A stretch of DNA of 32,000 bases, from contig JBHLPL010000009.1 in NCBI GenBank assembly GCA_048939465.1, positions 1-32,000 of the forward strand, given 5' to 3'. Each line of letters opens with the position of its first letter. The first letter of the stretch is position 1. The notes under the pieces were generated by a model. The model was given only the letters and a program-made list of their open reading frames with translations, was not told the origin of the DNA and ran no database searches. The stretch comes from Promethearchaeota archaeon. Its GTDB lineage: Archaea; Asgardarchaeota; Odinarchaeia; Odinarchaeales; JBHLKK01. Of the stretch, positions 2,539-10,042 are shown piece after piece. The translations under genes and the position numbers were made by a program.

Positions 2539-2863
2539 GTAGACTGCCCCCCGCTTTCGCAGGGAGCCTTCCATCAGAGGTTGAGTATGGTGCACCGCAC
2601 CACGCAACCCCACCGTCAACAGGACGAAAGAGCCTGCCTACAGGGACTCCAGCTCTGGTAAACTGGGAAAAGACGTTGTACCCTCGAACTTCCCGCACCT
2701 TATCTCATCAATCCCCCCCGCGGGTCATTAACCGTTTCCACATGGGAGAAAAGCGTGCCTTTAGCCCTATTCGAATATATTGCAAGAATGTAGAATGTAC
2801 TTGGAGACGGTTCAATCACTCTCCGCCCTTCCGGACGGAGTTTCCTTGAGGTGGTTCAGGTGT
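2539..2863 (+). mobile_element. Element E1 (325 nt): ORF-less IS200/IS605-like (omegaRNA/HEARO-like) insertion near the 5' end of porG
   Basis: Starts GTAGACTGCCCC plus a hairpin, ends with hairpin CTCCG..CGGAG-TTTCCTTGAGGTGGTTCAGGTGT directly before ATGAA. Its 3' half aligns with E2 and E3. Family assignment is inference from end motifs. Confidence 0.7.
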
Positions 2864-3420
2864 ATGAAATTCGCTGGCATGGTCGAGGAGGACAAGGTGC
2901 AGTAACAGCATCCTATGTTCTCGTAGATGCCGCATATAGAGACGGCTATGAAGGCGTTCAGTCTTTTCCTTTTTTCGGTGCTGAGAGGAGAGGGGCACCA
3001 GTTAAAGCGTTTACTAGAATTTCAAAGACGATGATATATTCCCGCTGCCAAATTTATGAGCCTGATGCGATCATAGTTTTGGATCCTACTTTGCTGGATA
3101 TTGTCGATGTTACGGAAGGATTGAAAAGAGGCGGAGTCATTGTAGCCAATGCAAATGAGGTTCCAAAGAAATGGAGAAACAAGAATTGGAAGATATACAT
3201 AGTTGATGCTACTGCAATAGCGCTAGAAGTCGGCTTGATCGTAGCGGGATCCCCTGTATTAAACACGCCGATGCTGGGCGCATTTGCTAAAGCAACGGGA
3301 TTAGTAAGGCTGGAGAGAATCAAGGAAGCGATAAGCAATAAGTGGAAAGGCAAGGCCGGAGAAAGAAATATAAAAGCGGCAGAATTAGCATATGAACAGT
3401 GTAAATTGGTAGTATCTTAG
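2860..3420 (+). CDS. porG: 2-oxoacid (pyruvate):ferredoxin oxidoreductase gamma subunit
   Basis: YEIRWHGRGGQGAV and FFGAERRGAPVKAFTRIS. GTG at 2860 follows SD GAGGTG. Substrate specificity (por versus vor/kor) cannot be resolved from sequence. Confidence 0.92.
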   Translation: MYEIRWHGRGGQGAVTASYVLVDAAYRDGYEGVQSFPFFGAERRGAPVKAFTRISKTMIYSRCQIYEPDAIIVLDPTLLDIVDVTEGLKRGGVIVANANEVPKKWRNKNWKIYIVDATAIALEVGLIVAGSPVLNTPMLGAFAKATGLVRLERIKEAISNKWKGKAGERNIKAAELAYEQCKLVVS

Positions 3421-3436
3421 GCTAGGGGGACTTATT

Positions 3437-3769
3437 CTGAATTCTGGAACTCGGCAAAAGAGTCTGGTTCTTGGAAAGACTGCTAAGACCAAGAAAAAGA
3501 AAGCAGGAATTAGACCTGACGCAATACCTTTATCAAAGCCTGGCAGGGGATCTTACGGCAGAACCGGAGATTGGAGAACCTTCAAGCCGGTAATGGATAA
3601 AGAAAAATGCAACAAATGTATGCTCTGTTGGCTTTATTGTCCAGAAGGAGTAATAGATCAAGGGAAAGAAGGATATCCGAAAATCGATTATATGTATTGT
3701 AAAGGTTGTGGCATTTGTGCTCAAGAATGCCCATCCAAGTGCATAGAAATGGTGAGAGAGGAAAAGTAA
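3437..3769 (+). CDS. porD: 2-oxoacid:ferredoxin oxidoreductase delta subunit (2x[4Fe-4S]); start codon uncertain, missing from the ORF track
   Basis: The frame encodes PLSKPGRGSYGRTGDWRTFKPVMDKEKCNKCMLCWLYCPE...YCKGCGICAQECPSKCIEMVREEK*. There is no in-frame ATG/GTG/TTG before the conserved region; CTG at 3437 after GGGGGA is tentative. Confidence 0.88.
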   Translation: MNSGTRQKSLVLGKTAKTKKKKAGIRPDAIPLSKPGRGSYGRTGDWRTFKPVMDKEKCNKCMLCWLYCPEGVIDQGKEGYPKIDYMYCKGCGICAQECPSKCIEMVREEK

Positions 3770-4065
3770 ACTATTCCTCTCCTGTCGAAGGAGCTTATGA
3801 CTATGCTAGACCTCAATTCCCGAGCGGGCTTTGGTTCCGGTACACGCCAAATCAGGGGGCAGTTTACATCGTCCCAGCCCACTAGTCCCCATATAACGTC
3901 GGGGTTTATAGTTTATTTCACACATCTTCCCCACAGGTCGGTGACCGTTTCCGCGTCAGAGAGGGGTGCGCCTTTAGATATTTCAGCAAATATATAACAA
4001 ACGTATTTGAAGGCCACTAAATTCCTCTCCTCCCTTTCGGACGGATTCTCCTTGAGGTGGTTCAA
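3766..4065 (+). mobile_element. Element E2 (300 nt) at the porD/porA junction
   Basis: Starts GTAAACT (overlaps the porD TAA), ends TTCTCCTTGAGGTGGTTCAA directly before ATGAA (porA start). About 70% ungapped identity to E3 over 138 nt by hand count. Confidence 0.8.
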
Positions 4066-5277
4066 ATGAAAACACAGATTATGACGGGAAATACGGCTGC
4101 AGCGTATGCTGCCAAATATGCGAGAGCACAAGTTATCGCTGCTTATCCCATAACACCACAAACCACAATCGTAGAAGCGATAGCGAGTCTCATAGATGAA
4201 GGTGAAATGGAAGCAGAATACATTCGTGTCGAGAGTGAACACAGTGCTATGGCAGCTTGCATTGGTGCTGCCGCTACTGGAGCCAGAGCATTTACTGCAA
4301 CATCATCCCATGGCCTTACTTTGATGCATGAAATGCTTCATTGGGCTAGCGGATCTAGGTTGCCCATTGTTATGGCAAATGTCAATCGAGCCATGGGACC
4401 GCCGTGGAATATATGGCCCGATCACAATGATAGCATATCACAAAGAGATGTTGGATGGATACAATTCTATGTCGAAAACAATCAAGAGGTATTCGATACG
4501 ATCTTACAGTGCTACCGGATTTCTGAAAACCAAGAAGTTCTGTTGCCCTCCATGGTGAACCTCGACGGCTTTATTATTTCTCACACCTCTGCCCCGCTAA
4601 GCTTACCTGGTCAAGAAGAGGTCGATGAATTCATACCGGACTATAACCCAAATCCGGAGAAACAACTTGTCATGGATACTCACAAACCAGTGACACATGG
4701 CAACATCATTATGGTTAACAGTCCAGACGATTGGTATTATGAGTATCGTTATATGATTCACGAAGCTATGATGAACGCCAAGAAGGTCATTCAAGAAGTT
4801 GTAGAGGAGTTTCACAGAAGATTCGGTAGGTCACACGGGGGATTGGTTGAAGAGTATAAATGTAAAGATGCAAACCTGATTTTAGTATCCATGGGAACTA
4901 TTGCAAGCCAGGCTAAAGCCGCTATCGATGAGTTGAGACAGGAAGGATACAAAGTGGGAGCTCTCAAGCTAAGGGTTTTTAGACCATTTCCTAGGGAGGA
5001 GTTCCAAAGACTGGCAGATAGAGTCGAAGCCCTTGCGGTGATAGACAGGAACATATCTTTTGGAATGGGGGGTGCAGCTTCCGCAGAGATTAAGGCTGCA
5101 TTATACAATCACAAGAAACACCCATTAATCTTGGAGAACATCGCAGGAATAGGAGGGAGAGACGTGACATCCTCCGATATTAAAAAGATGGTTCTGGGTG
5201 CATTAGAAGTGCTAGAAACTGGTAAAACAGGAGAGGATATTAATTGGCATGGCCTCCGAGTGGGAGAAATGAAGTAG
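4066..5277 (+). CDS. porA: 2-oxoacid:ferredoxin oxidoreductase alpha subunit
   Basis: AYPITPQT, VESEHSAM, ATSSHGL, NVNRAMGPP, KLRVFRPFP. ATG at 4066 with SD GAGGTG. Confidence 0.95.
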   Translation: MKTQIMTGNTAAAYAAKYARAQVIAAYPITPQTTIVEAIASLIDEGEMEAEYIRVESEHSAMAACIGAAATGARAFTATSSHGLTLMHEMLHWASGSRLPIVMANVNRAMGPPWNIWPDHNDSISQRDVGWIQFYVENNQEVFDTILQCYRISENQEVLLPSMVNLDGFIISHTSAPLSLPGQEEVDEFIPDYNPNPEKQLVMDTHKPVTHGNIIMVNSPDDWYYEYRYMIHEAMMNAKKVIQEVVEEFHRRFGRSHGGLVEEYKCKDANLILVSMGTIASQAKAAIDELRQEGYKVGALKLRVFRPFPREEFQRLADRVEALAVIDRNISFGMGGAASAEIKAALYNHKKHPLILENIAGIGGRDVTSSDIKKMVLGALEVLETGKTGEDINWHGLRVGEMK

Positions 5278-5570
5278 ACTGCCCCTCCGATAAGAAAGGA
5301 GTTTATGACTATGTTTGACTACAATTTCTTCAGGGGGTCCGGTTGCATCACATGCCAAATCAGGGGACGGTTTATAGCGTCCCAGCCCAGTGACCCGCAC
5401 ACAGCGTCGAGGTATGTAGTCTCTTTCACCCATGCTCCTCATCCGTTATTAGCCGCTTCCTCCCTCCGAGAGCGTACCTCTGAATCCATTAGCACGGTTG
5501 AAACGAACGTATTTAAGGACCGCCCAATTGATCCCTTACTTTTCGGAAAGAAACTTCGTGAGGTGGTTTG
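5274..5570 (+). mobile_element. Element E3 (297 nt) at the porA/porB junction
   Basis: Starts GTAGACTGCCCC (overlaps the porA TAG), ends CTTCGTGAGGTGGTTTG directly before ATGAA (porB start). Homologous to E2. Confidence 0.8.
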
Positions 5571-6476
5571 ATGAACTCAATATTAGGACTTCCGAGGAAG
5601 GAACTCGTGTATAAGGGAAATAGCGCGTGTATGGGTTGTAGCGCTGTATTGGCAATGAGACATGTGTTAAAAGCTCTAGGTGAGCAAACTGTCATGATCA
5701 TACCGGCAGGCTGTAGCACAATAATTCAGGGTCTCTATCCAAAAACTGCTATTGGCGTTCCTCTGCTCAACATCGCTTTCGAGGCTGCTGCAGCTGCGGC
5801 CTCCGGCATTACAGCAGGATTTAGAGCTCAAGGAAAGAAGGACATTACTGTGGTAGCGTGGGCAGGAGATGGAGGGACATTTGATATTGGACTTCAGGCA
5901 TTAAGTGGTGCGGCAGAACGTCAGACGAATATGATTTACATATGTTATGACAACGAGGCATACATGAATACGGGAATTCAACGTAGCGGCGCAACCCCCT
6001 ACGGAGCCATAACGACCACGACGCCGGGAGGAAAGAGACTACCTAAAAAGGACCTTGATGCGATTGTCTTGGCTCACGACGTACCTTATTTGGCAACTGC
6101 CAACATAGGATACCCACAGGACCTCTATAGGAAAGTCAAAAAAGCGAAAGAAAAGGAAGGATTCAGATTCATCCACATACTAAGTCCTTGCCCCCCAGGA
6201 TGGAGGTTTGATTCAAGTCTTACAGTCACCCTGGCGAAGTTGGCGGTTCAGACTGGCATATGGGTACTGTTTGAGGTGGAAGACGGCAAATTCAGACTTT
6301 CAGGACCAAGCAAGAGACTGCTGGACCCGAATAAAAGAAAGCCTGTCGAAGATTATCTGAAGCTTCAGGGAAGATTCTCAGAGCTCACAGGTGAGGATGT
6401 GAAAGAGATAAATAGAGAGATCGTGGAAAACTGGCAAGAAATAAACAGAAAAGTCTCTCGAGCAGAAGGAGTGTAG
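5571..6476 (+). CDS. porB: 2-oxoacid:ferredoxin oxidoreductase beta subunit (TPP-binding)
   Basis: ACMGC, GDGGTFDIGLQ...CYDNEAYMNTGIQRS (TPP motif), SPCPPGW. Confidence 0.95.
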   Translation: MNSILGLPRKELVYKGNSACMGCSAVLAMRHVLKALGEQTVMIIPAGCSTIIQGLYPKTAIGVPLLNIAFEAAAAAASGITAGFRAQGKKDITVVAWAGDGGTFDIGLQALSGAAERQTNMIYICYDNEAYMNTGIQRSGATPYGAITTTTPGGKRLPKKDLDAIVLAHDVPYLATANIGYPQDLYRKVKKAKEKEGFRFIHILSPCPPGWRFDSSLTVTLAKLAVQTGIWVLFEVEDGKFRLSGPSKRLLDPNKRKPVEDYLKLQGRFSELTGEDVKEINREIVENWQEINRKVSRAEGV

Positions 6477-8900: not shown

Positions 8901-9259
8901 GGACCGTCCCTCTGACTTTTTTCCTATGAAGCGACCTATTCCACCGTCTGAGTATATAAGAATTGGCTCTGATGAGTTGAAGTGAGAAACACGACAGGTT
9001 GATTCCCAACCTCGCAGAATCTAGTCTATTCTGGCAGAACCGATACGAGACGATAAAAGCAGCATATGATTCTGGAGTACAATGGAATACATAATAAGAC
9101 AGGAGAGTATAACTTCGACTCAAGCGAATCGCAGCCCACAACAGCAATCGAAGCAAGATTAATAGGCATGGACCATATGCCACCGATTTGCTCCGGGCCA
9201 TCGAAAGCTTTTAGAAGGTTAACGCGTCTACAATTTTGTATCCATTTGGGGGTTTTGAA

Positions 9260-9847
9260 TTGGAAGTCGAAAAATCATCCGAAAAAACGATAAATGAGGT
9301 TCAGTATTGGATAAAACGACAGCTGAGAGACCCAATCACAAAAATATTGCTTCCCAAATCCAGTCTGACGGAAATACAGTTAAATACGCTTTTATTAGAC
9401 CTCATGACGGATTCAATTTCACACAGAAAATTGACCTATAGAGAGAAGGCAACTTTGAGAAGACTGAAAGTCGAGGCCAAGAACGAGGGGAAGAAAACAA
9501 AAAGAAAGGTAGTATCAACTGCGGATGGAGTATCACGAGGTGCTTTCAACAGGGTGTTAAGGCAAGCCAGGCGGAACGTGATCCGTTCAGTCTACACCAT
9601 AATCCTATTAGGGTACCTGGGCATTTTTGAAGAGCCTAAATTGCAGCCATACTTGGTTTTGGCTAAGGAATTGAGAGAATATGTCAAGACCTATGAAGAG
9701 GTTTGGAATAAACACCAGAAACGAAAGACGAAGAAAAGTGAAATGGAATTACTGAGAACTTTTCAAGAGCACATCAAGGAGCTGGTGCAGAAACTTGGAG
9801 ATCCGTTAGCACTAAAAGAAGGAATAGAAACGGATTATGAGGTGTAA
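9260..9847 (+). CDS. Conserved hypothetical protein (possible HTH: GVSRGAFNRVLRQARRN...YTIILLGYLG)
   Basis: Long ORF with plausible composition; TTG at 9260 follows GGGGGT. Confidence 0.7.
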   Translation: MEVEKSSEKTINEVQYWIKRQLRDPITKILLPKSSLTEIQLNTLLLDLMTDSISHRKLTYREKATLRRLKVEAKNEGKKTKRKVVSTADGVSRGAFNRVLRQARRNVIRSVYTIILLGYLGIFEEPKLQPYLVLAKELREYVKTYEEVWNKHQKRKTKKSEMELLRTFQEHIKELVQKLGDPLALKEGIETDYEV

Positions 9848-10042
9848 ACCGCTCCTCTGGTTTGGGGGACAATGGAATACGCAGTCATATATTGTATTTG
9901 ACTCAGTCTATGTCTCATCTTCTCTCTCGCTTTTCCGGTCTTCACAGAGCCGAGCATTTGATAGGAAATCTCTGCATACAAAGCTAATCGAAATTAGAAA
10001 ATATATTTAAATACATTGATTTGTATCTTTTTGTGACAAACT

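Follow-up and report, generated by a model that had tools for sequence, protein, structure and literature searches.

Gene-less derivatives of IS200/IS605 transposons have been described as PATEs in Haloquadratum walsbyi (Dyall-Smith et al. 2011, PMC3119063) and as ISGst1-5-type, PATE-like elements in Geobacillus stearothermophilus (Meers et al. 2023, PMC10055086). According to the available portions of these reports, such elements have kept the hairpins of the left end (LE) and the right end (RE) together with the guide-RNA region of TnpB, are mobilised in trans, and are inserted and excised seamlessly; for the ISGst elements, the transposon-adjacent motifs (TAMs) TTCAT and TTTAT, the transposon-encoded motif (TEM) TTCAC, and a guide covarying with the TAM have been reported (PMC10055086). 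In these respects they resemble three inserts, E1, E2 and E3, in a stretch of 32,000 nt (hereafter the window) from a metagenome-assembled genome (MAG) of a Promethearchaeota archaeon (contig JBHLPL010000009.1), where the inserts directly precede the genes porG, porA and porB encoding subunits of a pyruvate:ferredoxin oxidoreductase. In contrast to the described elements, these inserts reside in an archaeal (Asgard) host, are systematically located at start and stop codons, and have an LE linker that reads as a Shine-Dalgarno (SD) sequence and a TEM that reads as a stop codon; none of this is mentioned in the available portions of either report (PMC10055086, PMC3119063). The element itself belongs to an established group, the PATE-like IS200/IS605 derivatives, and its TAM and TEM are of known types; the part not found described is the biology of its sites.

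Small non-autonomous elements such as Correia/NEMIS in Neisseria, ERIC, and the in-frame RPEs of Rickettsia are tolerated in transcription units through the sequence that they carry. These miniature inverted-repeat transposable elements (MITEs) have terminal inverted repeats, produce target duplications, and supply promoters, processing sites or in-frame peptides; to our knowledge, none of them combines a matched stop codon and SD sequence at a start-codon target. IStrons, which consist of an IS200/IS605 or IS607 element and a group I intron and belong to the same superfamily as the inserts described here, likewise spare the gene that they interrupt. They are reported to be silent by RNA self-splicing (Zedaveinyte et al. 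2023, PMC10690162), whereas the present elements would be silent by their choice of site and by replacement translation signals. The ATGA and TGATG gene pairs for which coupling of termination and reinitiation has been reported (Huber et al. 2019, PMC6728339) are the type of junction found at E3 and at the copies on contigs C84 and C66. Coupling in those pairs is native; in the present case, about 300 nt separate the two halves of the overlap, and SD-led initiation has presumably taken the place of coupling.

The arrangement can with good confidence be attributed to mini-elements that dock 5' of ATGAA and whose ends rebuild the stop codon and the ribosome-binding site (RBS) of the flanking genes without any splicing. 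Such elements, with three copies within one operon, would be a non-splicing counterpart to IStrons and would represent a third route for mobile elements in compact operons, the two others being splicing, as in introns, IStrons and inteins, and insertion into neutral DNA: the element picks the start/stop signal as its target and brings spare copies of the signals that it displaces. An earlier, sequence-only reading of the window had regarded this replacement of signals as undescribed. As far as the stop codon is concerned, the replacement follows the published TEM/TAM rule; docking at start and stop codons with a stop in the RE tip and an SD sequence in the LE linker was not found described in the parts of the literature covered by full-text searches, and to this extent the claim stands.

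Element ends at the junctions of the por genes

The translation signals in the element ends can be read directly at both junctions, as had been proposed (coordinates in Table 1). On the coding strand, porD ends with GAG GAA AAG TAA, in which G3766 is the first base of E2, and porA ends with ATG AAG TAG, in which G5274 is the first base of E3. At the opposite ends, GAGGTG precedes the start codon by 6 nt in E2 (4054-4059, followed by GTTCAA and porA ATG 4066), by 5 nt in E3 (5560-5565, followed by GTTTG and porB ATG 5571) and by 6 nt in E1 (2848-2853, followed by GTTCAG and porG GTG 2860). In-silico excision of 3766-4065 results in GAG GAA AAA TGA AAA and that of 5274-5570 in ATG AAA TGA ACT, each with an ATGA stop-start overlap, which confirms the corresponding claim of the sequence-only reading. 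The flanking proteins are indeed unchanged, and no splicing is needed because both flanking open reading frames (ORFs) are intact: PorD, PorA and PorB align over their full length with the orthologues from the same genus and have identical termini (VREEK*, GEMK*/GEIK* and MNSILG). E1, E2 and E3 are homologous to one another, with a mean column identity of 70% in an alignment of the three copies, and their G+C content is above that of the surrounding DNA.

Derivation from IS200/IS605 transposons

An iterated nhmmer search of the 1.96-Mb assembly led to a family of 18 full-length copies, each differing by 9-29% from the consensus, and many partial copies. In host-gene orientation, the initial ~145 nt share homology with the 3' end of tnpB and the right end of a transposon on contig C55; the terminal ~70 nt share homology with the left end preceding a tnpB gene on contig C70. 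By this homology, the inserts are therefore to be regarded as PATE-like deletion derivatives of IS200/IS605 transposons of the TnpB (IS1341-like) lineage, devoid of tnpA and tnpB, a derivation that the sequence-only reading had not recognised. The top strand of the transposon is the minus strand of the window, the GAGGTGGTT end is the LE, which adjoins the target TTCAT, and the GTAAAC end is the RE. The LE contains a hairpin, CTCC(G/A)(C/T)CC-loop-GGA(C/T)GGAG, in which one pair shows compensatory A-T / G-C changes and a C.A mismatch is conserved; these pairs were counted by hand, and RNAalifold gave no structure for the LE alignment. A similar hairpin in the same orientation is present in the RE. 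Both hairpins are imperfect and subterminal, and there are no terminal inverted repeats.

TnpB domains are encoded at six places in the genome, among them on contigs C2, C55, C105 and C70. There is one Y1 TnpA (C105:1180-1545), which would be the enzyme that mobilises the elements in trans. In a search of 41 Asgard genomes at the DNA level, the family was found in this genus only, with 18, 5 and 12 matches in its three genomes; outside the genus, only the guide-RNA core was detectable, in two other families. A scan of 596 Gb of contigs with an 18-letter pattern, which with 17 specified bases was too short, gave 117 matches that are nearly all due to chance, and among them one real left end in a Methanoxibalbensis MAG with no evident gene start at this site. 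A 20-mer scan of metagenomes retrieved 15 contigs, and ATGA follows the element end in 14; few of these have clear gene starts, and many are duplicates of one locus.

Micro-elements of 45-48 nt are also found, in which an RE tip (GTAAAC or GTGAAC) is combined with a single hairpin and an LE tail (in G000 at C138:78760-78807, C69:17421-17467, C23:14124-14169, C48, C105:997-1043 and other sites). Some are located directly before start codons or right behind gene ends, and the same unit of RE tip, hairpin and LE tail occurs within the LE of the tnpA-bearing insertion sequence on C105. This suggests that one hairpin with both motifs may be the minimal mobile unit.

Target motif and replacement stop codon

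Two sister subfamilies, type A and type B, are distinguished by their targets. At type-A left ends, ATG is located at a constant offset in 22 of 28 cases, and ATGA (mostly ATGAA) follows after 2-3 variable bases in 18 of 28; the 43 left ends of type B adjoin ATAA(A) instead of ATGA. Beside the LE hairpin, the two types differ by one base, with TCTCC accompanying ATGA and TCTTC accompanying ATAA. This is Watson-Crick covariation of guide and target, a logic known from IS608. In type B, the LE end (e.g., C137:8603-8666 and C39:12678-12742) is GCGGAGAAG-AAG beside ATAAA, and the RE tip is GTGAAC. Type-B copies are seldom located beside start codons, and their G-TGA ends an upstream ORF in few copies (e.g., on C48, 197 codons). 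E1 is chimeric (window 2539-2700): its LE half is of type A, and its RE half belongs to another subfamily with copies on C10, C144, C138 and C62.

The proposal that stop-start overlaps as such are targeted has to be abandoned. The target is TTCAT/ATGAA wherever it occurs, and copies are also found at plain starts, at plain stops, in spacers and between convergent genes. Insertion takes place 3' of the fixed TAM adjoining the LE, without target duplication, and is seamless at E3 and at the copies on C66, C84, C116 and C59.

In the IS200/IS605 elements of Geobacillus, TAM and TEM are reported to differ only at positions 3 and 5 (PMC10055086). Here, the TAM is TTCAT and the RE tip, which represents the TEM, is TTTAC, or CTAC in E1 and E3, and TTCAC in type B. 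Since the RE motif resembles the target, as it does throughout the IS200/IS605 family, insertion converts A-TGA-A on the coding strand into G-TAA-A or G-TAG-A. Bases 2-4 of the RE form a stop triplet in 48 of 49 recovered RE ends, with GTGGAC as the sole exception; the ends GTAAAC and GTAGAC, with TAA and TAG, belong to type A, and GTGAAC, with TGA, to type B. The element stop is in the frame of the displaced TGA, and the A-to-G exchange falls on the third codon position, changing AAA to AAG (both lysine) in porD and porA. The replacement stop is a direct consequence of TEM/TAM mimicry, and the published IS200/IS605 rule is tied in this way to a concrete fitness consequence for the host.

Empty alleles in genomes of the same genus

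The comparison was made with two congeneric genomes (G001 and G002), whose PorA is 87-89% identical; both are without E1, E2 and E3. Their porA/porB junction reads GGT GAA ATG AAA TGA ATT..., an exact ATGA overlap equal to the joined window flanks, and the empty allele of E3 is GAAATGAA followed directly by ATGAAT in both genomes. In the relatives, porG starts with TTG or ATG, followed by TAT GAA, exactly at the end of E1, with native DNA upstream. Apart from E1 and E3, empty alleles were found for six further copies (C84, C66, C116, C59, C23 and C38). With the point of insertion marked by a slash, that of the C84 copy reads TAT ATT GA/A TGA GG in G001, an ATGA overlap, and that of the C66 copy GAG TG/A TGA ATA in G002, a TGATG-type overlap. 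For C116, C59 and C23, the empty alleles are start codons preceded at a short distance by a native GGAGG or GGTGG, which is displaced by ~300 nt here. The E1 site in the relatives is likewise a start codon with a native SD sequence, and the C38 site is a stop-codon site. For the copy on C27, no syntenic site was found in the two relatives. The evidence for mobility is this presence/absence polymorphism between species, and it agrees with the earlier claim that the elements insert exactly 5' of ATGA(A). Because excision of IS200/IS605 elements is seamless, an empty site may represent the state before insertion or after excision alike.

Distribution of copies over the genome

The genome-wide distribution was evaluated with crude gene calls, for which 1958 ORFs were scored by codon usage and which put the coding share at 86%. 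Of the ATGA occurrences, about 18,400 fall within genes and about 2,800 in spacers; about 440-535 are start codons followed by A, and 223 are NNA-TGA stops, 46 of which are ATGA overlaps with a long downstream ORF. While ~85% of all ATGA sites are intragenic, none of the 18 ATGA-flanked type-A copies is. Eleven of the 18 are located at gene starts, compared with 16% expected among tolerated sites (p = 2e-5). When sites at which the element TAA or TAG ends a long upstream ORF are included, four further, stop-only copies are added, giving 15 of 18 compared with 20% expected (p = 2e-8). Start and stop are affected at once, at inferred overlaps, in four of 18 copies compared with 1.3% expected (p about 8e-5), so that the enrichment at ATGA overlaps predicted from the window was found genome-wide. 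With the spacer count halved, p is still 3e-3 for starts and 2e-5 for starts and stops together. Gene boundaries are strongly over-represented, and the layout is far from chance. This excess may be caused by retention, if the host gene depends on the element signals and only exact excision is tolerated, or by a wider target preference.

Shine-Dalgarno sequence of the left end and probable use of the element signals

The 16S rRNA gene is not assembled in this MAG, and none was detected in its two congeners; in two complete genomes of the same order, the 3' end of the 16S rRNA is GGATCACCTCCT. Among heptamers upstream of candidate starts in the present genome, GAGGTGA shows the highest enrichment (16-fold), and that of TGAGGTG is 8-fold. 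The LE linker TTGAGGTGGTT, located 5-6 nt from the junction, matches the same-order anti-SD. Because it matches the 16S tail of same-order genomes and is the most enriched upstream motif, GAGGTG in the LE linker is, judged by these two comparisons, a canonical SD sequence for this lineage, in line with the claim that the last bases of the element supply it. At the same position, type B has an SD match of at most 4 nt. In the mRNA sense, GG(A/C)CC(A/G)C upstream of the LE hairpin is predicted to pair with GGTGGTT in a helix covering the SD sequence and the start codon (3996-4085, 5502-5590 and 2790-2880); the fold energies are no better than those of shuffled sequences (z-scores of -0.25, +1.0 and -0.25).

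Several indirect signs suggest that host genes use the stop codon and the SD sequence of the elements. The upstream ORF ends at the element stop in eight of 20 type-A copies with a recovered RE end, and two further copies add to this number. At one site (C69b), a decaying element is present in all three species, with the RE tips ATGAAA, GTGAAC and ATAAGC; the upstream gene still stops at element bases 2-4 in each species (TGA, TGA and TAA), and the rest of the RE tip has diverged. A relic at 9844-9868 of the window consists of GTAAACCGCTCCTCTGG and TTTGGGGG. It has kept the TAA stop of the ORF 9236-9847 although the element has shrunk to ~25 nt, and at the same site the element is approximately of full length (~300 nt) in both same-genus genomes. 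Furthermore, copies adjacent to starts have kept longer SD matches than the remaining copies; this difference is modest (Mann-Whitney p = 0.019), and that in SD retention between the two groups has a Fisher p of only 0.09.

Proposed mode of insertion and its consequences

In the proposed sequence of events, Y1 TnpA would move the elements in trans as single strands, with integration 3' of TTCAT on the transposon top strand, which corresponds to the position immediately 5' of ATGAA on the host coding strand. ATGAA is common at starts (ATG+AA), at stops (NNA TGA A) and at ATGA stop-start overlaps. Through the terminal motif of the RE, which mimics the target, an in-frame stop would be restored with a silent A-to-G change before it (AAA to AAG), and GAGGTG in the LE linker would provide the downstream gene with an RBS 5-6 nt from the junction. 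Translation of the downstream gene would shift from termination-reinitiation coupling to SD-led initiation, and copies at gene boundaries would persist as the host gene comes to depend on the element signals.

A further step, tentative and rather doubtful at present, would be to regard these elements as an IS200/IS605 lineage specialised on the start/stop signal, with a portable stop in the RE, a portable SD sequence in the LE and possibly a relay ORF, and 'addictive' once established at a junction. Addiction of this kind would explain why old, diverged copies and relics are located exactly at junctions and why about one tenth of the ATGA overlaps in this genome are occupied. 

The docking of mini-elements at gene junctions has practical consequences: host stop codons and RBSs can derive from transposons, and tight junctions in archaeal MAGs can hide transposon relics of ~300 nt that annotation pipelines would call spacers or small ORFs. 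It also provides a natural experiment on the effect that conversion of an ATGA-coupled pair to SD-led initiation has on translation.

Objections and alternative explanations

A number of observations weigh against the docking of mini-elements with replacement signals, in particular at E2. The sequence-only reading had predicted ATGA overlaps in orthologous operons; this holds for porA/porB, but in the relatives porD and porA are spaced, with GAG GAA AAA TGA, then GAAATGAAGACAAAGGTTTCAGAA, then ATG AAA ACG and 24 nt between TGA and ATG. Spaced junctions in orthologues with an empty site are what that reading had named as its own refutation, which therefore applies to E2. As 28 nt take the position of E2 in both relatives, E2 is no simple split of an ATGA overlap, and the overlap restored by its excision is arithmetic only, a junction of this kind being absent from the two closest relatives. 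The ancestral porD/porA junction was probably not an overlap. E2 is bounded on both sides by positions at which the relatives have ATGA motifs. The 28-nt difference may have arisen after insertion, by deletion between ATGA repeats, or in the relatives, by duplication of 21 nt. The spacer of the relatives (G002:C81, G001:C10) contains a 9-nt direct repeat, AGAAATGAA, at a spacing of 21 nt. It also contains an additional in-frame ATG, located 7 codons before the porA start, and a duplication of the porA start region in the relatives is possible.

Further objections concern the transposition and the statistics. The sole TnpA of the MAG lies in a type-B and not in a type-A element. A minority of copies (E1, C38, C10, C25 and C73) have 4 extra bases, and the copy on C84 has 7, located beside one end and before the ATGA-like motif; this may reflect boundary slippage of the kind reported by Meers et al. 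(PMC10055086). In E1 (window 2856-2864) and C38, the 4 extra bases repeat the 4 on the opposite flank, which is unexpected for IS200/IS605. The null model of the enrichment rests on the crude gene calls and some sites are related, and the apparent enrichment is inflated by the fact that decayed copies in neutral DNA are harder to detect.

The signals could also be a pure by-product of transposition combined with survivorship: sequences resembling a stop and an SD would be needed by TnpA only, downstream genes would be translated in some other way, the excess at gene boundaries would arise only because selection removes copies from other sites and conserved copies are more readily detected, and there would be no functional replacement. 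This explanation, considered unlikely overall, is favoured by the similarity of TEM and TAM being a published mechanistic constraint, and by type B, which carries a stop triplet (G-TGA) and, at the position of the SD sequence, a weaker SD-like GGAG without docking at starts. Several copies that have no gene downstream likewise have GAGGTGGTT intact; it is therefore a family trait that is not locally selected. The purine-rich LE linker may serve transposition, and since the motif is kept where no gene follows, the SD sequence may be an exaptation of this linker as well as an adaptation. Evidence against a by-product comes from the ORFs that terminate at the element stop, from the stop conserved at C69b amid drifting RE bases and kept in the relic, and from the longer SD matches at starts. 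In addition, the native SD sequence is ~300 nt away after insertion at C116, C59 and E3, and as SD motifs are strongly enriched in this genome, some replacement is needed there.

In addition to the replacement of signals, an internal 'relay' ORF of ~85-100 codons might carry ribosomes through the insert and preserve coupling, or encode a small protein. In the direction of the host gene, one frame of the family consensus is free of stops over 98 codons, and at least 83 open codons are found in 11 of 18 copies, including the three most diverged ones. The ORF starts at an internal AAGGAG...ATG and usually ends at a TAG (or TGA) touching the host ATG. A simulation of neutral substitutions on the consensus predicts about 8 open copies compared with the 11 observed (p about 0.1), E2 contains a premature stop (66 codons), and about half of the frame is antisense to the former tnpB coding region, which tends to stay open; such a relay is regarded as improbable. 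The internal ORFs are located at 3797-3997 (E2), 5305-5571 (E3) and, in G000, C66:3268-3549, among others.

Leader RNAs acting in cis on the por operon and other genes (riboswitch- or T-box-like) instead of mobile DNA would agree with the constant orientation directly before starts, the length of ~300 nt, the raised G+C content and the helix over SD and AUG, and were rejected as highly improbable because of the seamless presence/absence polymorphism at orthologous sites and folds no more stable than shuffles; the ends are homologous to tnpB transposon ends, no Rfam family was detected in the window at threshold, and copies also lie between convergent genes. Removal of introns (tRNA-type with a bulge-helix-bulge motif, group I/II, or GT...AG) from the polycistronic mRNA, with restoration of the ATGA overlap at the RNA level, is suggested by GTAA/GTAG at the beginning and mostly YAG at the end of the inserts and by the overlaps that exact removal recreates, and was likewise rejected, its probability being close to negligible, as neither ORF needs the removal to be complete, TAM/guide covariation marks the ends as those of IS200/IS605 elements, the empty sites are DNA-level alleles, and no intron family, including group I introns, was detected at threshold in the Rfam scan of the window.

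Coordinates and other features of the window

Table 1. Elements and por genes in the window (positions from its first nucleotide)
Feature	Position	Strand	Remarks
E1, gene-less IS200/IS605 mini-element	2539..2859	-	directly 5' of porG start GTG 2860; transposon top strand (LE to RE) is the window minus strand
porG	2860..3420	+	gamma subunit, pyruvate:ferredoxin oxidoreductase; full-length tblastn match in relatives
porD	3440..3769	+	delta subunit; stop TAA 3767-3769 within E2; true start uncertain
E2, 300-nt PATE-like element	3766..4065	-	RE end G-TAA (3766-3769, coding strand); LE hairpin ~4027-4047
porA	4066..5277	+	alpha subunit; start ATGAA is the element target motif; stop TAG 5275-5277 within E3
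E3, 297-nt PATE-like element	5274..5570	-	RE end G-TAG (5274-5277, coding strand)
porB	5571..6476	+	beta subunit; start ATGAA is the E3 target motif
Element relic, ~25 nt	9844..9868	-	RE tip GTAAACCGCTCC... fused to LE tip; gives TAA stop of ORF 9236-9847

No ATG, GTG or TTG precedes the conserved N-terminal part of porD; its frame is open from ~3434, and the first canonical start is ATG 3593. The situation is identical in both same-genus relatives (window 3420-3600). This points to initiation at a non-canonical codon, ATT or CTG behind GGGGGA, or to an intron that escaped recognition. A search for contigs encoding the 58-aa PorD gave no match.

No tRNA was called in the window by ARAGORN, and a tRNA-like gene at 2279-2460 was missed by ARAGORN and Rfam alike. 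It has the acceptor GCCGGGG...CCCCGGCGCCA and recognisable D and T arms, and it is interrupted twice, by a long insertion behind the anticodon region and by another one within the T arm. Both same-genus genomes have conserved the 3' end of this gene.

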